From: Vulcanimicrobiota bacterium
GTDB lineage: Bacteria > Vulcanimicrobiota > Vulcanimicrobiia > Vulcanimicrobiales > Vulcanimicrobiaceae
DNA: 64,000 nucleotides
Direction of reading: 5' to 3'
Assembly: GCA_963777315.1 (NCBI GenBank)
Contig: CAVZQC010000002.1
Span: forward strand, 224,001 to 288,000
Position numbers and translations under genes: made by a program. The notes beneath the pieces are model-generated. The model was not told where the DNA came from. It was given only the letters and a program-made list of their open reading frames with translations, and ran no database searches. Below are positions 37,678-49,907 of the stretch, one piece after another (position 1 is the first letter of the stretch; the number at the start of each line of letters is the position of its first letter).

Positions 37678-38227
37678 CGTTCGCGCCGTTGCGCTGATTG
37701 CGGGCGCGATCCTGGTGATCTGGTTCGTCGTCGGGATAATTCTAGCCGGCCGCGAGAGTGCGCCGCTGCCTCCGGGAACGCAGCCCATCACGCTTCGCGG
37801 CGGCCGCGTGAACGGCAACCGCTTCAGCACGCATTCCTGGACCTTCGAATACCAGCGCGCGCAAATGTCGCCGGACGGAACGTTTGCTACAGTCGACGGC
37901 GTGCGCAACGGCATACTCTACAAAAAGGGAAAGCCGTATTTGAGCATTGCGGCCGAGCACGCTTCCATCAACACGCAGACGCTGGATTTCACTGCGATGG
38001 GTCAAGTCCACATCGCGGCACTGGACTCCAAGGACGGCGTGCGCAGATCGTTCGATACGGATCTGGTGCAGTGGACCAATGCGACCAAAATTCTCTCGCT
38101 CTCGCATCAGTCGCTGCTGCGCACGGGCGACGAAACGCTGCGGGTCGCGTCGATCACGGTCAACTTCAACACGAGCGACATTCACCTTGGCCGAGTGGAA
38201 GGCGCCGTACAGGCTCCGGGGCCGTGA
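37664..38227 (+). CDS. LptC-like protein
   Basis: Single N-terminal TM plus a beta-jellyroll-like periplasmic domain. Overlaps lnt and lies near lptF/G and lptD. Confidence 0.55.
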   Translation: MKAFNVRAVALIAGAILVIWFVVGIILAGRESAPLPPGTQPITLRGGRVNGNRFSTHSWTFEYQRAQMSPDGTFATVDGVRNGILYKKGKPYLSIAAEHASINTQTLDFTAMGQVHIAALDSKDGVRRSFDTDLVQWTNATKILSLSHQSLLRTGDETLRVASITVNFNTSDIHLGRVEGAVQAPGP

Positions 38228-38748
38228 TCGAACTCGTCCAAAGCGACATCACGCTGCTGCACGCGGATGCCATCGTCAACGCTGCCAACGAGCAGCTTGC
38301 CGGGGGCGCCGGCGTGGACGGCGCGATCCATCGCGCGGGCGGCCGTGCGATTATGGAGCAGTGCCGCGCGATCGGCTCGTGCCCTACCGGGAGCGCCGTC
38401 ATCACCGGCGCGGGCGATTTGCACGCGCGGTACGTCATTCACGCCGTCGCGCCGATCTACCGCGGAATGGAAACGGATGCGCAATTGCTGGCAAGCGCGT
38501 ATCGGCGCGCGCTTGCGCTGGCCGACGAACACGCGCTGCGCAGCATCGCGTTTCCTTCGCTGGGCACCGGCGCGTACGGTTATCCAATCGAGCAGGCCGC
38601 GCGCATTGCGCTTGCGACGGTAATGGATCACCTCACGCGGAGCGATACGGCGATGCGTAGGGCGATCTTTGCGCTGTTCAGCGCGCGGGATTTTTCAGTG
38701 TACGATCGGACGCTGCGCTCGTTGCAGCGCCCCAGGCCGGCGAGCTAG
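38224..38748 (+). CDS. Macrodomain protein (O-acetyl-ADP-ribose deacetylase, YmdB-like)
   Basis: DIT...DAIVNAAN..LAGGAGVDGAIHRAGG, VIHAVAP, SIAFPSLGTGAYGYP. Confidence 0.93.
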   Translation: MIELVQSDITLLHADAIVNAANEQLAGGAGVDGAIHRAGGRAIMEQCRAIGSCPTGSAVITGAGDLHARYVIHAVAPIYRGMETDAQLLASAYRRALALADEHALRSIAFPSLGTGAYGYPIEQAARIALATVMDHLTRSDTAMRRAIFALFSARDFSVYDRTLRSLQRPRPAS

Positions 38749-39083
38749 GACTCCTCGCCCTTTTCGGGCTCGGTCCCGAGCTGCTTTTTCGCTTCGGCAA
38801 TCAGCTTTTTGACCTTCTGACCGCCCTTGTGGCCGATCTCTTCATAAAAATCGGCGCCGTATTTTTCCTTGACGACCTTGCCGCCTTTTTGGCCGATGGA
38901 TTCGTAAAACTCGACACCGTGCCGCTGGCGGGTCGCTTGGCCCCCTTTGCGGCCGATCTCCTCGTAAAAACCAGAGCCGTAACGGTCCCGAACGGTGTTG
39001 CCGCCCTTCTTGCCGGCCTCGCGCACGGACATCTCGCCACCCGGCTGCTTGTCGTCAGACTCGCCTTTGGTGGGTTTTGCCAT
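38745..39083 (-). CDS. KGG-repeat general stress protein (GsiB/Em-like)
   Basis: MSVREAGKKGG followed by 20-aa repeats FYEEIGRKGG / FYESIGQKGG / FYEEIGHKGG. Confidence 0.88.
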   Translation of the reverse strand: MAKPTKGESDDKQPGGEMSVREAGKKGGNTVRDRYGSGFYEEIGRKGGQATRQRHGVEFYESIGQKGGKVVKEKYGADFYEEIGHKGGQKVKKLIAEAKKQLGTEPEKGEES

Positions 39084-39115
39084 TGGTTACCCCGGTGGGA
39101 AAGAAAAAGAGGAGT

Positions 39116-39334
39116 TTAGGACGTCTTGCGTTTGAGCTTCTGTCCGCCCTTTTGACCGATCACCTCATAGAACGAGGGGCCGTACTTTTCCTTGGTCGCT
39201 TCCCCACCCTTGCGGCCAATGGCCTCGTAGAACTCGGTACCATACTTGGCCTTCACGCGTTCACCGCCACGCTTGCCTGCTTCGCGAACGGTCATGCCGC
39301 CTCCGGGCCCCTGCGTTTGTTCTTGCATTGCCAT
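39116..39334 (-). CDS. KGG-repeat general stress protein (GsiB/Em-like)
   Basis: MTVREAGKRGG, FYEAIGRKGG, FYEVIGQKGG. SD GAGGT upstream. Confidence 0.85.
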   Translation of the reverse strand: MAMQEQTQGPGGGMTVREAGKRGGERVKAKYGTEFYEAIGRKGGEATKEKYGPSFYEVIGQKGGQKLKRKTS

Positions 39335-39426: not shown

Positions 39427-41007
39427 ATGATATCGACGGTGCTCGAAAACGCAACGATAATCGACGGCACTGGTCGATTACCTTATACCACCGATGTCGG
39501 AATTTTCAACGATCGCATCGCATTGATAGGCGATTTGCGCGATCGCGACGCGATTGCGCGAATCGACTGCACCGCAAAGACGCTCGCGCCCGGCTTCATC
39601 GACGTACATTCGCATTCGGACGAATCGTGGCTGGCGCTTCCGCGCTGCGACGGCAAGATCGCGCAGGGCGTAACGACGGAAATCGGCGGCAACTGCGGCA
39701 TGTCGGTTGCGCCGCTGCACGGACCCGGCCTGCAGCGCGTGCAGCGCAGCGCGCAACTGCTCGGCATCGACGTCGCCTGGCGTACGTTGGACGAATTTTT
39801 CTCGCTGGTCGAACGCAGCGGCGTGGCTCTCAACGTCGCAACGCTCGTGGGGCTGGGTACGACGCGCCAAACGATCGCGGATGATTCCGAGCGGCGTTTG
39901 GAAGCCGGCGAGATCGAGGCGCAGGCTCAGACCGTGCGCGAGGCGTGCGAACAAGGCGCCTTGGGCGTATCCAGCGGTCTAATCTATCCTCCTTCGATGT
40001 ACGCCGATCGACGCGAATTGACGGCAATGGCGGCGGCGGCGCGCCATGCCGGAGCGCCGCGATATGCCTCGCACGTCCGCAACGAGGGCGACGAGCTGGT
40101 GACGGCGATCGAAGAAGCGCTCGAAGTGGGGCGGATTGCGGACGTCATCGTGCAGTGCTCGCATCACAAGGCCGCCGGCAAGAACAACTGGGGTAAGGTG
40201 CACCGCACGCTTGAAATGATCGACGCCGCGCGGGCGAGTGGACTGCATGCGTTCTGCGACGTGTATCCTTACGTCGCCAGTTGGACGGAGCTGGCAACGA
40301 TTTTACCGGCGCAAAGCCGTTTCGGCGGCGTGCAGGCGACGCTCGACCGGCTCGCGGATCCGCAACAGTCGAGCTCTCTGGCGCTCTACCTGGATCTCAA
40401 ACACGGGCACGCATGGGGCGACATGCTGATCACCGACGTTGCTTCGGATAAAAACGGCGAACTGGCGGGCATGCTCGTAAGCCAAATTGCGCGCATGTGG
40501 GCAATGACGCCGGCGCGCGCCGCCATTCGGCTTCTGCTCGAAGAAGGGTTGCAAGTCGGAGCCGTTTTTTTCACGATGAACGAGGACGACGTCGCAGCGG
40601 TGCTGTCGGCGGATTTCTGTTGCGTCGGCAGCGATGCGTCGATTCGCGCCTTGAACGGACCGACCGCGCGCGGCGTTCCGCACCCGCGAACGTTCGGTAC
40701 GTTTCCACGCGTGTTCGGACGATTCGTGCGCGGCCGCGGCACGCTCGACATCGTCCAGGCCGTTCATCGCATGACCGGTCTGCCGGCCGCGATTTTCGGC
40801 CTAGCGAATCGGGGCGCCATCGCGGTAGGGCATTTCGCCGACGTGGTCGTGTTCGACGCGGCGGGCATCCGGGATACGGCTACTTACGAACGCCCGTACA
40901 GCTTTCCGGACGGCGTCGATCACGTGTTCGTAAACGGGCGGCCCGTACTGCTGCGCGGGCAGTTTACGGCCGAACGCCCGGGACGCGTGTTGCGCGGGGG
41001 CCGCTGA
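39427..41007 (+). CDS. N-acyl-D-amino-acid deacylase (amidohydrolase family)
   Basis: APGFIDVHSHSD, QGVTTEIGGNCG, SHVRNE, SHHK, DVYPY, GSD, PHPRTFGTFPR, VNG...RPGRVLR. Confidence 0.9.
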   Translation: MISTVLENATIIDGTGRLPYTTDVGIFNDRIALIGDLRDRDAIARIDCTAKTLAPGFIDVHSHSDESWLALPRCDGKIAQGVTTEIGGNCGMSVAPLHGPGLQRVQRSAQLLGIDVAWRTLDEFFSLVERSGVALNVATLVGLGTTRQTIADDSERRLEAGEIEAQAQTVREACEQGALGVSSGLIYPPSMYADRRELTAMAAAARHAGAPRYASHVRNEGDELVTAIEEALEVGRIADVIVQCSHHKAAGKNNWGKVHRTLEMIDAARASGLHAFCDVYPYVASWTELATILPAQSRFGGVQATLDRLADPQQSSSLALYLDLKHGHAWGDMLITDVASDKNGELAGMLVSQIARMWAMTPARAAIRLLLEEGLQVGAVFFTMNEDDVAAVLSADFCCVGSDASIRALNGPTARGVPHPRTFGTFPRVFGRFVRGRGTLDIVQAVHRMTGLPAAIFGLANRGAIAVGHFADVVVFDAAGIRDTATYERPYSFPDGVDHVFVNGRPVLLRGQFTAERPGRVLRGGR

Positions 41008-41103
41008 CGCACAAGCCGGGCGAGCGCGTTTGGCTCGCGCCGGATGGTGGCATAATGGCAGCGTCAAGTAAAGCTAGAGGAGTAGTCCATTGGCGTAGCT
41101 TGA

Positions 41104-41133
41104 AAAGGGGCCGGTGCTTCACCGGGCCCCTTT
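41104..41133. terminator. Bidirectional intrinsic terminator between the aminoacylase gene and coaE
   Basis: AAAGGGGCCGGTG-CTT-CACCGGGCCCCTTT, a stem with A/T tracts on both sides. Confidence 0.7.
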
Positions 41134-41156
41134 GCTGTTTGCCGCGTTCGGCGCAG

Positions 41157-41741
41157 CTATTTGCCGGTCAGCTGCTCGTACAGCGCGTGCACGCGCTGTT
41201 TAAGATGCAGAAAGTCGCCGTCGTTGTCGATCACGTAGTCCGCTCGAAGGCGAGCCTGCTCGGGTTCGATTTGGGAGGCCATGCGCGACTGCGCCTGCTC
41301 CTGCGTCATACGATCGCGGCGAGCGATGCGCTGCAGCCGCTGCGCGATTGGAGCGACGACCACGATGCTGGCATCGACCCGGCGGTCGTAACCGGTTTCG
41401 AACAACAGCGGAACCACGTGCACGACGAGCTGACCCGGAGCGGCATAGCGGTCGCGTTCGTCGGCCAAACGGCGGACGTGCGGATGGACGATGGAGTTCA
41501 AGCGCTCGCGCGCCGGCGGGTCGTGGAAGACGATGTGCGCCAGAGCGGCACGGTCCAGATGTCCGTCGCGCACGACGGAGGGCCACGTGCGCGCAATTTC
41601 ACGCAAACCGTCGCTGCCCGGAGCAACCGCTTCGCGCGCGAGCCCGTCGGTGTCGACGATGTACGCGCCGAGCGATTCGAACAGCCGCGCTACTTCACTT
41701 TTTCCGGCGCCGATGCCGCCGGTCAGTCCGATTCTCCTCAA
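41157..41741 (-). CDS. coaE: Dephospho-CoA kinase
   Basis: IGLTGGIGAGKS P-loop, D.D.LAREAV, LDRAALA..VF, LNSIVHP.VR, VPLLFE, ADYVIDN. Confidence 0.95.
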   Translation of the reverse strand: MRRIGLTGGIGAGKSEVARLFESLGAYIVDTDGLAREAVAPGSDGLREIARTWPSVVRDGHLDRAALAHIVFHDPPARERLNSIVHPHVRRLADERDRYAAPGQLVVHVVPLLFETGYDRRVDASIVVVAPIAQRLQRIARRDRMTQEQAQSRMASQIEPEQARLRADYVIDNDGDFLHLKQRVHALYEQLTGK

Positions 41742-42453
41742 CCGCGGAGCCTCAAAGCCAATGGCACATCAGGCACACGTCCATCGCACATCCTGTGCGA
41801 GCGGCAAATGCTCGCATCCCGCTCGCTATGCCGCCGGTCAGTCCGATCCTCGCCACCCGCCGACCTCAAACTATCAATCGCACATCAAGCACAAACGCTA
41901 TCGCACGTCCTGTGCGAGCGGCAAATGCTCGCATCCCGCTCGCTATGCCGCCGGTCAGTCCGATCCTCGCCACCCGCCGACCTCAAACTATCAATCGCAC
42001 ATCAAGCACAAACGCTATCGCACGTCCTGTGCGAGCGGCAAATGCTCGCATCCCGCTCGCTATGCCGCCGGTCAGTCCGATCCTCGCCACCCGCCGACCT
42101 CAAACTATCAATCGCACATCAAGCACAAACGCTATCGCACGTCCTGTGCGAGCGGCAAATGCTCGCATCCCGCTCGCTATGCCGCCGGTCAGTCCGATCC
42201 TCGCCACCCGCCGACCTCAAACTATCAATCGCACATCAAGCACAAACGCTATCGCACGTCCTGTGCGAGCGGCAAATGCTCGCATCCCGCTCGCTATGCC
42301 GCCGGTCAGTCCGATCCTCGCCACCCGCCGACCTCAAACTATCAATCGCACATCAAGCACAAACGCTATCGCACATCCTGTGCGAGCGGCAAATGCTCGC
42401 ATCCCGCTCGCTATGCCGCCGGTCAGTCCGATCCTCGTCACCCGCCGACCTCA
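41713..42453 (-). repeat. 117-bp tandem repeat array (about 5.7 near-identical units at 41783-42453 plus a degenerate copy running into coaE); each unit is SD + GTG + mini-ORF
   Basis: Marker TCCTGTG at 41791, 41908, 42025, 42142, 42259, 42376 (exact 117 period). Minus-strand GTG starts at 42441, 42324, 42207, 42090, 41973, 41856. Confidence 0.95.
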
Positions 42454-42470
42454 CACTACCGTCGGGTTCC

Positions 42471-43625
42471 TTATTCCGGTTTGACCTCGGCGGCCTCCGG
42501 TGCCGGCGGCGCGCCGACTTCCTCGTCGATGGCGTACTTCTCGATCTCTTCGGGTGGAACGTCCGCGACGTGCTGAATCGATGCAGTGATCCGTCGCGTC
42601 GAGTGATTGATCGTCAGGAGCGTCACTTCGACTTCCTGGCCGGGGCTGAACTGCGCCGAAGGATCGAACTCGCCCTTGGGCACCATCGCCAAAACGCCCG
42701 GAACGATTTCCACGAGCAGATAGTTCGGCGTCACCTTGACGATCTGCGCGGACAGCTTGTTGGTCTCGTACAGCTTGTCGGCGTGCTCGTCCCATGGATC
42801 GGGCAGCGTGTGCTTGAGCGACAAGCTGACCTTCTTTGCGTCCGGGTCGAATTTCATGATTTCGACGTTGACGACGTCGCCGATCTTCACGACTTCGGAG
42901 GGATGTTTGATGCGGGCGTAGCTCGAGCTCGCTGTTGTGGATGAGCCCGTCGATGCCGCCCAGATCCACGAATGCTCCGAACTCTGCCAGCCGCACGACC
43001 ACGCCTTCGCGGATCTGTCCGACCTCGAGCGTGCCGAGCAGCTCCTGTTTCTTCGCGTTCAACTCCTCTTCCAGAACCAGACGCTGAGAGAGAACTACGC
43101 GATGCCGTTTGTGGTCGAGATCGATGACCTTGAGGCGCAGCTTTTGCCGATCAGCTCGTCGAGATTGCCGACCGGCTGACGGCGGATCTGCGAAGCCGGA
43201 ACGAAGCCGCGCATGCCGAGATCGACCAGGACGCCGCCTTTGACGACCTGCGTGACGGTCGCCTCGATCACTTCGTCGCGATCGTGCGCTTCGATGACCT
43301 TCTCCCAGGTCTTGAGCGCGCGGGCGCGGCGTTCGGACAGAAACAGCGTACCGTCCATGTCGTCGATGCGATGGATCATCACCTCGAGCGTGTCGCCGAC
43401 CTTTAAGTCTTTTGGTTCGATCGCCAGAGAAAGTTCGCGAAACGGCAGCGCGCCCTCGGACTTGCCGCCGATGTCGACCAGGAGCTCGTCCTGATATTTG
43501 GCCACAATGACGCCGTTGAGAACTTGTCCTTCGTCCAGGACCTTGAGCGATTCTTCGTAGAGTCGTTGCTCGAGCGCGTGCTGGTCTTCTTCTTCGTGCA
43601 CGGGAGCGATGTTGGTCGTAGTGAT
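42471..43625 (-). CDS. rpsA: 30S ribosomal protein S1 (four S1 domains); two compensating frameshifts near 43143 and 42925
   Basis: LVDIGGKSEG, VKGGVLVDLGMRGFVPASQI, FGAFVDLGGIDGLIHNSEL, KVSLSLK..PDPW, spread over three ORFs. Start is GTG 43601 or possibly ATC 43625. Confidence 0.9.
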
Positions 43626-43656
43626 TGTTTGAGTTCCTACCTTCGTTTATTTTGCA

Positions 43657-44469
43657 TTATTTCTGACACTTGCGGCACCACCAGGTTCCGCGTTGCGCAA
43701 TGACGGTCCGCACGATTTCGCTGCGGCAGCGAGAGCACGGAGCCCCCGTTCTGCCATAGACCGAAAGCGCGTTTTGAAAGCCGCCCTTCAATCCATCTGC
43801 ATCGACGTAGTCGTCCACGCTGCTGCCGCGCATGTCGATAGCGCGCTGCAGAACGTCGACGAGGGCATGATGCAATCGGCGAATCGCCGGTTTGGTCAGC
43901 GTTCCGGCGGGCCTGCCGGGACGAATCCCGGCCTGCCAGAGCGCTTCGCACGCATAGATATTGCCGATGCCCGCGATGCGCCGCTGATCGAGCAGAAACG
44001 CCTTTATGGGCGTTGTCCGCCCCGACAGCATAGCGATAAAGCCCTCCGGAGTAAAGTCCCCGGAAAGCGGCTCGACGCCCAAGGCGCGATCCCACGCCTC
44101 GCCGGGCCGGACCAAGCGCATGCGTCCGAACTGGCGCACGTCGGCAAACGCGAGCTCCGTCCCGTCCGAGAAGGTCAGAACGACGTGGACGTACGGATAG
44201 TCGCGTCCTTTCGCCTCAAGGGCTACCAGGCGCCCGGTCATTCGCAAGCTGACCACGAGCGCCTCGCCCGAGTGCAGCCCGATGACGGCGTATTTTCCCC
44301 GGCGGTCAACTCCGCAGATACGCCGGCCGCGCACCGCCTGTTCGAACGAAACGCCGGCGGGCGCCACCGCAATTTTTTTCATCGTGACGCGCGCGCGGGC
44401 GATCGTTTTGCCGACGATGGCGCGGCGCAACCCCCGCACGATCGTTTCGACTTCGGGCAATTCCGGCAT
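43657..44469 (-). CDS. mutM: Formamidopyrimidine-DNA glycosylase
   Basis: MPELPEVET, RRGKY, LRMTG, DVRQFG, LLDQRRIAGIGNIYACEAL, C-terminal CxxC...CxxCQ zinc finger. Confidence 0.96.
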   Translation of the reverse strand: MPELPEVETIVRGLRRAIVGKTIARARVTMKKIAVAPAGVSFEQAVRGRRICGVDRRGKYAVIGLHSGEALVVSLRMTGRLVALEAKGRDYPYVHVVLTFSDGTELAFADVRQFGRMRLVRPGEAWDRALGVEPLSGDFTPEGFIAMLSGRTTPIKAFLLDQRRIAGIGNIYACEALWQAGIRPGRPAGTLTKPAIRRLHHALVDVLQRAIDMRGSSVDDYVDADGLKGGFQNALSVYGRTGAPCSRCRSEIVRTVIAQRGTWWCRKCQK

Positions 44470-44484: not shown

Positions 44485-44931
44485 TTAGCGGGGCAGGCCC
44501 AACACGCGCGCCCCTGCATGCAATCCGTCAGCCGGTGCTTCGCCCGCCGGAAGCTCGATGACGTATTTGGCGCGGGCCTGCTCGAGCGGAATGTCGCCGT
44601 CGGCCATGCTCGCGGGTACCACCGGCACGTTTGCGTACACTTGGCGCACGATGCCCTGCGCGGAAATGAAAACCATGTCCAGCGGGACCAGCGTATCCTT
44701 CATCCAGAACGCGACCGGCTCGTCGGTTTCGAACACGAACAGCATTCCGGTCCGGCGAGGCAAATGCGCCACGCCCATGAGGCCTCGCGCGCGCTGCTCG
44801 TCCGTGTCCGCAACTTGAACGCGGACGACTGCGCGCGGCAGGTGCAGGGCGATCCGGGGCAAGGATTGCGCAGTCGGAACCGGCGCCGGATTGGCCGCCA
44901 GAACGAGTGCGAGGACGAAGTTACAAATCAT
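44485..44931 (-). CDS. DUF192 family protein
   Basis: VADT.EQRARGLM, GMLFVF, FWMKDTLVPLDMVFI, YVIELPAG. Confidence 0.9.
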   Translation of the reverse strand: MICNFVLALVLAANPAPVPTAQSLPRIALHLPRAVVRVQVADTDEQRARGLMGVAHLPRRTGMLFVFETDEPVAFWMKDTLVPLDMVFISAQGIVRQVYANVPVVPASMADGDIPLEQARAKYVIELPAGEAPADGLHAGARVLGLPR

Positions 44932-47541
44932 CCGTTTGCTCCACGTCGTACCAATTCGTTCCGACCTTTGCCGTAGCGACCAGCGGAACGTCCAGCTCGA
45001 CGACCCCTTCCATCTCCGAGCGCACCAGCTGCGCCGTCTGCCGCAGCTGCGAGCGGTGCACTTCAAAGATCACTTCGTCGTGTATCTGCAGCAGCATGCG
45101 CGCGTCCAACCCCTCACGGGAGAGCCCCGCCGCAATTCGAACCATCGCCAGTTTCATGATGTCCGCGGCGCTGCCTTGCAGAGGGGCGTTGGTCGCCTCG
45201 CGTTCGGCAGCCGAGCGCAGCATGTAATTGCTGGAACGCAGCGCAGGCATGTATCGTCGCCGGCCCAGCAGCGTGCTGACGTAGCCCAGATCGCGTCCGC
45301 CGGCAATCACGCTCTCGATGTACGCGCGCACCTTGGGAAAACGCGCGAAATACGCTTGCGTCATCGCTTTGGCCAGCGCCCTGTCGATCTCCAGCCGTTG
45401 CGCCAGACCAAAATCCGACATGCCGTACAGCAATCCGAAATTCACCGATTTGGCCATGCGTCGCTGATTGCCGTCGACGTGCGCGCCGGCGGGCACGTTG
45501 AATATTTGGCGCGCCGTGAAGTCGTGGATGTCCTGACCTTCTTCGAAGGCTCGGCGCATCGCTTCGTCGCCCGAAAGATGCGCCATCAAGCGAAGTTCGA
45601 TTTGGCTGTAGTCCGCGGCCAGCAGCACGTACTGCTCTGCGGGAGCTGACGAACGCGCGCCGGATCCGCCGTCCGAGATCGCTGCGCACGGGAATATTCT
45701 GCAGATTCGGATTGGTCGAACTCAGCCTGCCCGTCGCCGTGGCGGTTTGGTTGAAAATCGTGCGCAGCCGCCCGTCGCTCTTGTCGGTCAGCGCCGGAAT
45801 GACGTCGACATACGTGTTCTTCAGACTTCGTGACTTCGCGATATTCCAAAACCTTGGCGCAGATCGGGTAATCGCGGGCCAATCCCTGAAGCACTTCGAC
45901 GCCCGTTGCCCATCCCGTCTTGGTTTTTTTACCGCCCGGAATACAGAGTTTGCCGAAAAGCACGTTGCCCAGCTGCATCGGCGAACCGATGTTGAACTGC
46001 TCGCCGGCAAAATCGTAGATCTCTTTTTGCAGCCGCTCTACCGCCGAGTCGATCTCTTTGGCTAAAACGTGCAGCTCCTTTGGATCGACCAGGACTCCGG
46101 TCCATTCCATTTGCGCCAAAACCGGCGCGAGCGGAACTTCGACTACTTCATACAGGCGAAGCTGGCTGCGCGCCTGTAATGCCTCGCGCTCCGCCTGAGC
46201 GAGGCGCAGCACGGCGTCGGCATGCGCGGCAACGTCGTCGCCGGCCGAGAGCGCCAGCACTTCCTGCGCCGCTTCCTCGATCCGGGCGAACGTGCGCGAC
46301 GGATTGAGCAAATGCGCCCCGATCATTGTGTCGTCGGCGAAGGGCTTGGGCGAAAAACCGTGCGTGTGCAGCAGGTGCAACAGGCTTTTGACGTCGTGGG
46401 CGGCAAAGCGCGCCGCGCTTTCCCACAGCGCTGCAAATGCCGCAGCAACCGGTTCGTGAGCGAGCGCTCCGGCGGTAAATCCCAGTCCGGTGCCCGACTG
46501 CGCGCTCACGCCGAGCTCGCCGCCGGCTTTGACGGCAAACGCAATCGTACCGGCGCCGACGAGCTCTTCCAGCTCGCGCGCAAGTTGCGTGAATTCCGGC
46601 GGGTCGGTTGCGGCGACGTACGAGCGGTACCGCCCTTTGAGGCGCTCCTGCGTTTCCAGCAGCGGCATCTCCAGCGGCACGTCCAGCTTGCTCAGCAGCG
46701 TTTTGAATTCGAGATCGCTGTAAAGACGGTACAGCTCGTCGTTGCCCGGCGGCGTATAGCGCGACTGCTCCCAATCCAGCGCGATATCCAGATTCTTGCG
46801 CGCAACCGATACGTCGCGGCACACTTGTGCCTGTTTGCCGTGCTCTTCGACGAGCGCGCGCAATTTGGCCGAGCCGGCCAAAGCCGGATCGCTTACGAGC
46901 GCATCGAGAGAACCCGCTGCTTTAATCAGCTTTATCGCGGTCTTTTCCCCGACACCGGGAATGCCGGGCAGGTTGTCGGATGGATCGCCCTTGAGCCCGC
47001 GGTAGTCGGGAAGTTGCACGGGTTCCAGGCCGTCGTAGCGCTCGCGAACCGCCGCAACGTCGTATCGCCCGAGCTCGGTGATTCCGCGCCGCGTCATCAG
47101 TATCGTGGTGTTGGCGTCGACCAGTTGAAAGAGATCGGTGTCTCCGGTGACGATCACCGTTTCTTGACCGTCCCGTTCGGCCTGTCGAGCGAGCGTGGCG
47201 ATGATGTCGTCGGCCTCTTCGCCTTCAATCTCGACGATCGGAATCCGGTTCACGTCGAGAATCCGTCGAACGAGGGCAAATTGCGGACGCAAGTCGTCGG
47301 GCATCCGATCGCGCTGGGCTTTGTACTGACGGTACAGCGCCACCCGGTGCGCGGGCATGCCTTTGTCGAACGCCGCGACGATGTGCGTGGGCTTTTCGTC
47401 CGCGGCGATCTTGTTGAGCATCTGCGTAAAGCCGTAGGCGGCATTGATCGGCACGCCGCGCGTGGTCGTCAGCGGCGGCAGCGCGAAAAACGCACGGTAC
47501 ACCAGTCCGTACGTGTCCAGCAGCATGAGTTTGTCGCTCAC
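44921..47541 (-). CDS. polA: DNA polymerase I; two frameshifts near 45825 and 45640
   Basis: LLDTYGLVYRAFFA, EADDIIATL, GDPSDNLPGIPGVGEKTA, TATGRLSS.NPNLQNIP, ADYSQIELR, AKSVNFGLLYG, QIHDE, spread over three ORFs. Confidence 0.93.
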
Positions 47542-49907
47542 TGCACGATCAAATCGCTCGATGCCGCCGTCACGCGGCCGTCGTCGTCGACTTTGAGCAG
47601 CGACAGCACGTACTTGCCCGGCTTGGCGGGGACGAGCAGCTGCACCGAATCGCCGGAACGGCGTTCGACCTTCCAATAGTAGCTGGCCGTATCGGCCTGC
47701 GTCATCGTGAGGTCGGCCGGCGGATTCGTTCGCCGCACGAAGGTTTGAATGATCGCGTGATCGCCGGTGAAATCGACCCATGGGTGCCACAACGCGCCGT
47801 CGCCGGCCGTGTCCTGCGTGGCGGTCGTGCCGATCGCCAGCAGATCGGGCGCACCGGCGAACAGCGCAGAGCCGGTGGGAGCGCTTTTGGTCACGCGAAC
47901 GATCACCGTGCCTGCGCCGGGCCGCACGTCGCCGATCCGCGCCGTTGCCGTGGCGCCTGCGGCGTACGACGCGCGATCGAGCAGCAGCGGCGCACTCAAG
48001 GGTCGTCCCGGAGCATCCAGAACCAGCGGAGCATCTGCCCACAGCAGCGCGCCGTCACGCACGAACGCCGCGCCTATCGCCAAGGCGCCCGGAGCATCGT
48101 CGATCCGCAATGCGGCCGCCGCATGCCCGTGCTGCGTGGGAACGACGCGCACTTGCGTCCCGGCAGCGCTGTCCAGAGTGATGAAGGCATTGCCGTATGC
48201 GCCTGGCGCAAACGCATCGACGCGCACCTGCTGGCCTGCCAAATAGCGCTTGCGATCGACCGAAATTGCAACGTTCGCACTAGCCGCGGCTTGCGCGCGC
48301 ATCGTCTGCGGTTCAACCTGCAGCTGCGCTGCATCCATCGCAGGCTGCGCGCCGTCCGTGCGCGCAACCAGCAGATTAGAACCCACTTGCGGCAAGCTGA
48401 ACGACCCGTGCGCGTGGCCGCCTGCGTCGAGTGAAACGGTCTGCTGCTGCGCGGAAGAACCGTGGATCAGCTGCACGCGCACCGTAATCCCGGCGATCGG
48501 TTTGCCGGTTGCGGCATCGGTCGCGTAAACGTCGAAGGCCGCGGGCGTACCGCTGCCGACATCGTCACGGTCCAGCGAAACGCGCAGCGCGATGCGCGAC
48601 GTCGGAACGACGATGCGCGTGTCGGCGGTTGCACCGCCGGATCGGGCGCGCACTCCGTACGTCGAAGCCAACCCGTCAGTCGGGTGCGGAATCTCGATCA
48701 ATGCGCGGCCGTCTGCGCCGGTCGTCACCGTGGAGGAAAACCATCGCGCCACGCCCCACGGCTGCGCCGCCGATTGCTCGACGTAAGCGTGCGGCGAGCG
48801 AATGACCGTCGCGGTGACGTTCACGCCGGCGGCCGGCATGCCGCCGCGCAAAGCTCGCACGATCAGCGGAACGTCAGATCCGGGATCGCAACCGCCTTCG
48901 CACTGCTGCGCGAGCGACAGCGACAGTCCGTTCGCATCGGCATCCACGTGCACGGCGGTCCCGGCCGCCGTACCGGCGACGGTGGCGATCGCCGCGTATT
49001 CCCCTGCCGCGCTGGATTGCGGCACGCGCAGCGCCGTTGCAAACGCGCCGGACGAGTCCAAGCGCACCGACGTTTGCGCCGCTACGCCGTACGGCGATCG
49101 TAAAACGATCGTTGCCGTCCCGTATCCGGCCCGCAAACGTCCGCCGCTGCGCGAACGCGCGAAGCCGACGATCTGCAGTTCGTCGCCTGCATGCACCACT
49201 GCCGAAGCGGTTTTGATGCCGACGATCGTCGGCGGCAACGGCGCCTGAGGCAGGAATGAAACGAATGCCGAGCTGCTTGCCCATTGCGCCAGCGCGAAAA
49301 CGGGACGCGGGCGCGTCCGCCACGCCAGCACTCCGCTGCCGTCGGTGTACCGGTCGGTAAAACGGCCGTTCACGATCAGCGACACGCGCATGTGCGCGAG
49401 CGGACGTCCCGTGCCCAAGTCGGCTCCGTAGAGCGTTATCGAGCTCGGCGTTTCTTTCGTCAGCAGCGCAATGCGCGTGCGATCGATCCACACCTGCTCG
49501 CCGACGCTGCCGCGCCGCGCCTGCACGACGAAAAATCCTTCGCGCGATCCAAGCGGCACCTGCACGTCGTTGCTTTGAAAGCGGTAGCCTCCCGGCGGCG
49601 CGTACTGCCAACGCGCCAGCGGCCGCAAACGGCGCGTGTCTATCGCGCGCGGCCGCATCGTCGATCCGGCAACCAGAACGTCGGCGGGATCGACTTGATA
49701 CACTGAAAACGCGACCGGCGCGCTGGTATAAGTGTCCAACCTGACGGCCGTGGGTTTCCAAGGAACGTTTGAGTCGCGCGCGTACAGCGCGAAGTACGCG
49801 TCCAAGCGATGGTAGTCCAACAGCGGCCGAGCGGCGTGTGCGGGCAGTGCCGCGGCAATAAGCGCAAGCACCGGCCCTGCGAGCAGCACACGGTTACGAC
49901 GGAGCAT
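47538..49907 (-). CDS. Secreted protein resembling the N-terminal (MG-domain) half of bacterial alpha-2-macroglobulin
   Basis: Signal peptide, ADLGTGRPL...TDGSG, VHAGDELQIVGFAR..LDSSGAF..GEY, VDRKRYLAGQQVRV, LDRASYAAGATA. No CxEQ thioester motif seen. Confidence 0.6.
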   Translation of the reverse strand: MLRRNRVLLAGPVLALIAAALPAHAARPLLDYHRLDAYFALYARDSNVPWKPTAVRLDTYTSAPVAFSVYQVDPADVLVAGSTMRPRAIDTRRLRPLARWQYAPPGGYRFQSNDVQVPLGSREGFFVVQARRGSVGEQVWIDRTRIALLTKETPSSITLYGADLGTGRPLAHMRVSLIVNGRFTDRYTDGSGVLAWRTRPRPVFALAQWASSSAFVSFLPQAPLPPTIVGIKTASAVVHAGDELQIVGFARSRSGGRLRAGYGTATIVLRSPYGVAAQTSVRLDSSGAFATALRVPQSSAAGEYAAIATVAGTAAGTAVHVDADANGLSLSLAQQCEGGCDPGSDVPLIVRALRGGMPAAGVNVTATVIRSPHAYVEQSAAQPWGVARWFSSTVTTGADGRALIEIPHPTDGLASTYGVRARSGGATADTRIVVPTSRIALRVSLDRDDVGSGTPAAFDVYATDAATGKPIAGITVRVQLIHGSSAQQQTVSLDAGGHAHGSFSLPQVGSNLLVARTDGAQPAMDAAQLQVEPQTMRAQAAASANVAISVDRKRYLAGQQVRVDAFAPGAYGNAFITLDSAAGTQVRVVPTQHGHAAAALRIDDAPGALAIGAAFVRDGALLWADAPLVLDAPGRPLSAPLLLDRASYAAGATATARIGDVRPGAGTVIVRVTKSAPTGSALFAGAPDLLAIGTTATQDTAGDGALWHPWVDFTGDHAIIQTFVRRTNPPADLTMTQADTASYYWKVERRSGDSVQLLVPAKPGKYVLSLLKVDDDGRVTAASSDLIVQ

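Follow-up and report, generated by a model that had tools for sequence, protein, structure and literature searches.

Tandem two-hairpin modules and duplicated gene starts between rpsA and coaE in a Vulcanimicrobiaceae genome

The tandem array between rpsA and coaE

The window analysed is a stretch of 64 kb from a soil-type Vulcanimicrobiaceae bacterium whose 2.83-Mb source assembly is 89.9% complete (G000; other G numbers denote further Vulcanimicrobiaceae genomes). On its minus strand, the interval between rpsA and coaE carries a tandem array of six head-to-tail 117-bp units (Table 1), which TRF reported at 41713-42458 with 6.4 copies, 96% matches, 0% indels and a score of 1348; the remaining two TRF rows of the window score just 52-53. 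The array itself is real, with six units in the assembly, and both TRF and unit comparison bear out the initial annotation, made from the letters of the window, which had described six units at this place. It had also named CoaE and RpsA correctly, as shown by the PF01121 match of the former and the S1 domains of the latter. As that annotation had left to be checked, the 117-bp unit is confined to one locus of the source genome: BLAST found no second copy in the assembly and a best off-locus E of 0.23. No promoter- or terminator-like sites were found in 41000-43800. Elsewhere in the window, at 38745-39334 (-) and 38071-38748 (+), two small KGG-repeat stress proteins are encoded side by side, together with a macro-domain gene; these are ordinary.

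Table 1. Features of the rpsA-coaE interval (positions in the window)
Feature	Position	Strand	Basis or remark
Upstream gene rpsA (ribosomal protein S1), interrupted in this assembly by two single-base indels	42471..43601	-	S1 domains
rpsA-to-unit-1 spacer, 17 nt	42454..42470	-	array dissection
Unit 1 start module, displaced coaE initiation region (GAGG, GTG, codons to GGC GGC A)	42414..42453	-	
Unit 1 core, 44-bp two-hairpin module	42370..42413	-	covariance model E 5e-20 (a near-identical unit was in the model's training), pair counts
Unit 1 tail, 33 bp, AT-richer, no kinship to tails of other genomes	42337..42369	-	
Units 2-5, four identical 117-bp copies	41869..42336	-	sequence comparison
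Cores of units 2-5	42253-42296, 42136-42179, 42019-42062, 41902-41945	-	
Unit 6, core 41785-41828	41755..41868	-	tail with substitutions and indels, net loss 3 nt
Seventh start module, runs on into coaE	41714..41754	-	
coaE (dephospho-CoA kinase), 194 aa, intact, TTG start	41157..41741	-	PF01121 E 1.2e-51
False-start ORF 1, 35 aa	42334..42441	-	frame listing
False-start ORFs 2-5	42217-42324, 42100-42207, 41983-42090, 41866-41973	-	
False-start ORF 6, 34 aa, stop 10 nt ahead of real coaE start	41752..41856	-	
Predicted alternative-frame ORF, 43 aa	41738..41869	-	frame listing

Each 117-bp unit begins with 40 bp copied from the coaE start, followed by a two-hairpin core of 44 bp and a tail of 33 bp, and the start module of unit 1 can be aligned with the real one at the head of coaE. 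Units 2-5 are identical, and unit 1 differs from them by two substitutions. The tail of unit 6 has diverged, but its stop is still at the common TGAGG, just as first described. In the core of unit 1, hairpin 1 shows a tandem GA and a GGGAU loop, hairpin 2 shows an AGGAU loop, and an arm is complementary to a coaE heptamer.

All six GTG starts and TGA stops listed in the initial annotation were found. Its single 35-aa peptide, MARIG...GRAIAF, does not apply to unit 1, which encodes MTRIG...GCAIAF on the minus strand. False-start ORFs 1-5 each stop 9 nt ahead of the next GTG, and the predicted alternative-frame ORF starts at the ORF 5 stop, while its own stop has a 4-nt overlap with the real coaE TTG. 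The part of the unit that derives from coaE ends after GGC GGC A, and free copies of the module in other genomes start with the same bases which encode IASG in the G000 peptide. Therefore, GGIASG is not the second CoaE-like sequence for which it had been taken; its ASG codons form the left end of the module that was inserted.

A dispersed family of two-hairpin modules

On sequence comparison, the 44-bp core is not derived from coaE and is a member of a repeat family dispersed among Vulcanimicrobiaceae. Its two hairpins are backed by pair counts in an alignment of 13 cores. Hairpin 1 contains a compensatory change (GC in 7, CG in 5 and AU in 1 of the 13 rows) and covariation lies above all 500 shuffles; since the rows are kin and also served to derive the structure, this is support and not proof. 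In the coaE copies alone, covariation was not beyond shuffles (62 of 500 were as high), and the whole 117-bp unit folds no better than shuffles (z-score -0.16) and shows no end-to-end stem. The loops of G000 are GGGAU and AGGAY, those of the family are mostly AGGAY, and exact AYGGAY loops are found in some copies (G081 and G046). In G000, hairpin 2 is predicted to be unfolded in units 1-5 (probability 0.02-0.03, local span) and folded in unit 6 only.

Among 150 family genomes, a covariance model of the module matched 97 at E 0.01 and 20 at E 1e-8 or better, matches weaker than about E 1e-8 not being trusted; 10 of these 20 strong-match genomes lie outside the training set of the model. One relative reached a maximum of 16 matches, with 35 candidates scored per genome. 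The model found none in the 68 genomes from other families of the phylum at E 1e-5, and an exact core pattern gave no hits in metagenome contigs and none in viral contigs. Unpublished genomes enter only the search denominators, apart from G067 among the 20 strong matches. The G000-type core also occurs in named records titled Candidatus Baltobacteraceae or Vulcanimicrobiaceae (one NCBI family), which were kept out of the genome counts because they may duplicate genomes already counted. Core scans with 1.5-4-kb flanks did not reveal any long form of the element. Two sets of candidates were thinned out: a 15-nt hairpin pattern had matches in 72 of 201 genomes, many of which proved on inspection to be coding sequence and were discarded, and seven of the ten loci of one core scan were chance coding matches.

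Besides coaE, the module lies within tRNA-Gln fragments ahead of intact tRNA genes and in front of other genes' start codons, and it is found nested inside two further repeat families; in G160 it lies at coupled junctions of a mur operon, with a 10-bp duplication. Given its copies in tRNA-Gln fragments, at start codons and in other repeats, the module needs no coding target. In L227 (G001 C1:1327902-1328088), L088 and L218, it occupies the anticodon arm of a tRNA-Gln 5' fragment which is followed by an intact tRNA-Gln, and the copy in L227 is a 124-bp tandem array. Other GGAU-loop hairpins sit on long inverted repeats, which gives Y-shaped ends (L089-L094, L096, L098, L100-L102).

A second repeat family of G000 combines a G-run/C-run hairpin with a purine-rich end and is often present in two to four tandem copies at gene junctions (C4:364212-364464, C4:366898-367296, C2:510865-511283, C2:905382-905579, C4:112150-112330, C4:490620-490760 and C4:792270-792444). 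Its copies adjoin the starts of rplV, rplN, alaS, a DUF1501 gene, flbD, a guanylate kinase gene and a rod-binding gene, and in relatives the two-hairpin module is nested within this G-run/C-run family. Furthermore, two G000 arrays repeat tRNA-Ser 3' ends and have a short core in common (C4:609807-610121, 135 bp; C4:683878-684195, 111 bp), and C5:5438-5826 shows intergenic nested tandem repeats of 106 and 68 bp.

Filled, empty and scarred sites at coaE and fabD

Of 29 coaE loci collected from relatives, a set in which one locus was unread and another had only 29 nt upstream, two (G001 and G007) show a single false start followed by the G000-type core. A pattern search placed this core in four of 301 family genomes and added G133, where a contig end carries the core twice at a distance of 116 bp. 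G071 has a near-identical core after the same coaE codons, and variant cores were found at coaE in G102 and G081 starting from rpsA loci (27 of 30 genomes matched). G173 and G156 show scars, in which a short false start is left and the core is gone; G002, counted as empty, is possibly a scar as well. A filled coaE site is thus present in at least seven of 348 family genomes, a lower bound because most coaE loci were unread. The initial annotation had pointed to related genomes for empty sites and variable copy number, and filled, empty and scarred sites do occur there, with one versus two copies. None of the filled sites and none of the rows of the tree or the alignment come from unpublished genomes. 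In the rpsA-coaE spacer of G001 (L118), the false start is additionally preceded by a REP-like hairpin and a tandem repeat of 21 bp.

In an rpsA tree of 28 genomes, seven filled versus 15 empty sites require six changes, a count that omits four rows without adjacent coaE and the two scars. A single clade of filled sites was rejected (AU p 2.6e-7, and 2e-73 for the five near-identical cores alone), and G102 and G081 each have an empty sister with full support. The tree fits repeated gain and one old gain with many losses alike. However, the cores of G071 and G007 are near-identical across about 80% rpsA identity, which favours repeated insertion at coaE over one gain as the probable history.

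The coaE architecture is repeated at fabD (PF00698) in G046, G005 and G109, where the gene start, the module and the gene start again follow each other. G005 shows two tandem units, and G046 a perfect duplication of 50 bp. At both genes, the insertion point lies about 25-45 nt within the coding sequence and 16-50 bp of the gene start are duplicated; the ten coaE/fabD sites have periods of 80-119 bp. The duplicate differs from the host's own start by 0-2 mismatches in the best-preserved cases (G046, G081, G102 and G001). Several others have diverged, with 16-27 bp recognisable and 1-6 mismatches, so not all insertion events are recent.

The arm before hairpin 2 has its partner downstream, in the module's own right arm, in all 26 other (free) copies. 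In the ten coaE/fabD copies, the partner lies upstream in the gene in seven, downstream in none, and three are tied. This count takes Watson-Crick pairs, and its pattern missed G081 and some other copies; the arm of G081 does pair in a separate pair count. A count that also permitted G-U pairs was dropped as noisy, given that 15 of 39 other copies scored upstream as well. Copies at coaE and fabD have lost their own right arm or show it decayed, and a gene heptamer just upstream of the junction takes its place. The arm partly follows its target, since coaE copies end in CC or CT and fabD copies in AC in two of three. We infer that the site may be chosen through the match of the gene heptamer to the module's own arm, perhaps by way of a circle, a single strand or an RNA.

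In eight of nine genomes, the stop of the false-start ORF falls no more than 10 nt from the next or real start, against 1.7 expected under a shuffle null (P 7e-6, a value that overstates because kin genomes are not independent). In G109, outside the set of nine, the ORF ends at -4. An exact overlap of -4 or -1 is found in G133, G071, G081, G046, G005 and G109, and G000 shows spacings of +9/+10 plus a second frame at -4. G007 is the exception to the 10-nt limit and has an 8-codon relay ORF ending at -4. Among the scars, G156 has an 8-codon relay ORF at -4 and the false start of G173 ends at -4. Five of the six empty coaE sites checked are without a relay-type ORF; the sixth shows a frame of 5 codons at -10. 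The coupled leader ORFs proposed in the initial annotation are hence retained as a sequence pattern, but translational coupling is supported as a condition which would let an insertion survive, rather than as a means of tuning CoA synthesis.

Origin of the array and competing explanations

We consider it likely that the array arose from a selfish two-hairpin insertion that duplicates the start of its target, is tolerated via translational coupling and was then amplified in tandem. This agrees with one suggestion of the initial annotation, a small non-autonomous element regenerating the coaE 5' end, which is favoured by the filled, empty and scarred sites, the second target in fabD and the dispersed family. 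A non-autonomous module would have entered coaE right after the P-loop Gly-Gly codons, where the gene heptamer resembles the right arm of the module, and a circular or single-stranded copy could pair or recombine there. The coaE gene is required for CoA synthesis, so only events leaving a second gene start would survive. Because the real start is moved from its native initiation site, selection would keep those inserts whose ORF delivers ribosomes to it, a coupling step modelled on the MIRUs described below. Unequal recombination or slippage between start modules may then have produced an older two-unit state, seen as unit 6 versus the rest, and a later, recent expansion the identical units 2-5. 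The step from two units to six may well have been neutral.

A Y1 transposase was found in none of five carrier genomes and then in one of 24 (70-97% complete), with no module beside its two matches. A reverse transcriptase was present in one of five carriers and IS110 in two of five; all three are absent from G000. Across 31 loci searched, the only neighbours of modules were a small GIY-YIG gene and an IS110 end, each of them in G107, where two modules are located just upstream of the GIY-YIG gene. G000 shows one long GIY-YIG frame only. The small GIY-YIG genes of G107 are a lead only for a mobilising enzyme. In G107 and G160, tandem REP-like repeats were also noted on the flanks of small stand-alone GIY-YIG genes (L262, L263, L267, L271). 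The reverse strand of hairpin 2 may resemble relaxase nick sites, a likeness which loop variants break. A more specific version is possible, if doubtful: a TwoGGAY-like family in which a 6-7-nt stem arm would pick the target and an enzyme-driven event would write a start duplication of 30-50 bp, with the small GIY-YIG protein as candidate enzyme.

No published description of the module or of the coaE architecture was found in open-licence PubMed Central and bioRxiv. MIRUs are short, apparently mobile operon repeats with filled and empty sites and tandem occurrence (PMC12548453, PMC3184786); they insert at start codons with 4-nt direct repeats, as 40-100-bp units in 40-50 dispersed copies (PMC12548453, PMC3184786), and their ORF is coupled to the downstream gene, typically at -4 nt, so that insertion is tolerated (PMC12548453). 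The module resembles them in the predicted coupling of its false ORF, within 10 nt in the eight genomes and G109, and the G160 copies at coupled junctions with a 10-bp duplication are the closest case. However, the coaE and fabD junctions lie within coding sequence with 16-50 bp duplicated, the 117-bp unit of G000 occurs at one locus, and the likeness crosses phyla and is drawn from architecture.

TwoAYGGAY (TwoGGAY, RF01731) consists of two adjacent hairpins with GGAY-type loops and a tandem GA in one stem (PMC4333381), with variable copy number, mobile-like spread and structural variants which may bear on the comparison (bioRxiv 10.64898/2026.09.22.753630). The module may share the two hairpins and the loop type, its loops in G000 being GGGAU and AGGAY and hairpin 2 being predicted unfolded in units 1-5, and it shows a tandem GA, a variable copy number and a mobile-like spread. 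In contrast, at coaE it shows no common basal stem, its basal stem closing hairpin 1 only and using coaE codons, and neither insertion into a coding 5' end nor start duplication is among the TwoAYGGAY features cited here. RF01731 gave no match on the array or on 20 family loci at E up to 5 or 10, nor did any other Rfam family match the array or the 20 related loci.

REP/BIME/REPIN sequences and MITEs are likewise small non-autonomous hairpin repeats, found in tandem with flanking DNA (PMC3733652, PMC3184786). The module differs from the former in that the Y1 (RAYT-type) transposase is missing from most carriers, and from the latter in its long start duplications of 16-50 bp and a unit without terminal inverted repeats. 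Some integrative elements carry a replacement fragment of their target gene and leave the displaced fragment on one side and the restored gene on the other. The displaced gene fragment and restored gene are alike here, but the ten module sites contain no integrase or cargo, and in the best-preserved cases the module duplicates match the host's own start instead of a foreign homologue.

Another explanation is that the array is a domesticated regulatory leader, in which the GGA-loop hairpins bind CsrA or the copy number tunes ribosome flow from rpsA to coaE; we judge this unlikely. The core is better conserved than rpsA DNA among distant carriers (about 80% in rpsA for G071 versus G007), the GGA hairpin loop is the CsrA motif, TwoAYGGAY RNAs have been proposed as CsrA binders (PMC4333381), and CsrA is encoded in G000. 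However, csrA is present in 17 of the 20 strong-module genomes versus 126 of 150 overall, so that carriers are not enriched in it, and csrA gave no match in G081 (91% complete), which carries the module at coaE. The predicted unfolding of hairpin 2 in five of the six units counts against a CsrA sponge in G000, and most relatives manage without the module, as the low count of G000-type cores indicates.

It appears very improbable that the array is a neutral VNTR which arose by local duplication of the coaE start alone and without a mobile element. G000 does have other tandem arrays of 66-135 bp, and unrelated inserts accompany coaE false starts in Streptomyces, an Acetobacteraceae MAG, Motiliproteus and Syntrophomonas. 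Across all GTDB representatives, a doubled coaE start was found at 38 loci: four in Vulcanimicrobiaceae, 19 in Streptomyces, which have a single unrelated insert in common, one in each of the other three taxa, and 12 unrelated or unclear. The loci elsewhere include L140-L176 (the 19 Streptomyces), L146, L150 and L156/L188, and L146 has three tandem starts. Given such unrelated inserts in other phyla, a tendency to local duplication at coaE may contribute; however, the same 44-bp core at unrelated loci and in non-sister lineages means that local duplication cannot be the origin of the unit.

There is also little chance that the copy number is an artefact of error-prone long-read assembly. The rpsA indels near 42925 and 43144 (one base inserted, one missing) are absent from three relatives, and polA (44921-48042) is broken into several frames; these frame breaks are probably consensus errors, and units 2-5 show no difference. 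Against this, units 1, 2-5 and 6 are three distinct sequence types, and tandem copies of the same module family are found in four other assemblies (G133, G005, G001 at tRNA-Gln, and G160). The doubt is therefore limited to the number of identical middle units, and the copy number given here is an assembly consensus figure, not read-based. One DNA sequencing run (share 0.06) yielded contigs over rpsA and coaE of relatives and none across the array.

The amplified gene for a small hydrophobic peptide, also raised in the initial annotation, is scarcely credible, in spite of six open frames each with GAGG and GTG and a weakly hydrophobic C-terminus (best 19-residue hydropathy 1.26), because the C-terminal halves show no relation from genome to genome, the core is translated in a different frame in G102 and G081, other peptides are encoded at fabD sites, and unit 6 changes frame within its tail with the stop preserved, so that the peptide sequence is not the conserved thing and we propose that the false-start peptides are by-products.

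The start-duplicating insertion bears on an open question, how MIRU- and TwoAYGGAY-like repeats move and enter housekeeping operons without being lethal to the host; for TwoAYGGAY, the link between mobility and regulation has been called unresolved (bioRxiv 10.64898/2026.09.22.753630). In the module family, filled sites can be compared with scarred and empty counterparts at two defined coding targets, and the arm-target match predicts new insertion targets. It also gives a warning for annotation, since such arrays yield false small genes and mis-set start codons. If the sequence-guided route were true, TwoAYGGAY-type RNAs would gain a mobility mechanism, and the element could set GGA-loop hairpins and ribosome-relay ORFs, in variable copy number, before housekeeping genes.
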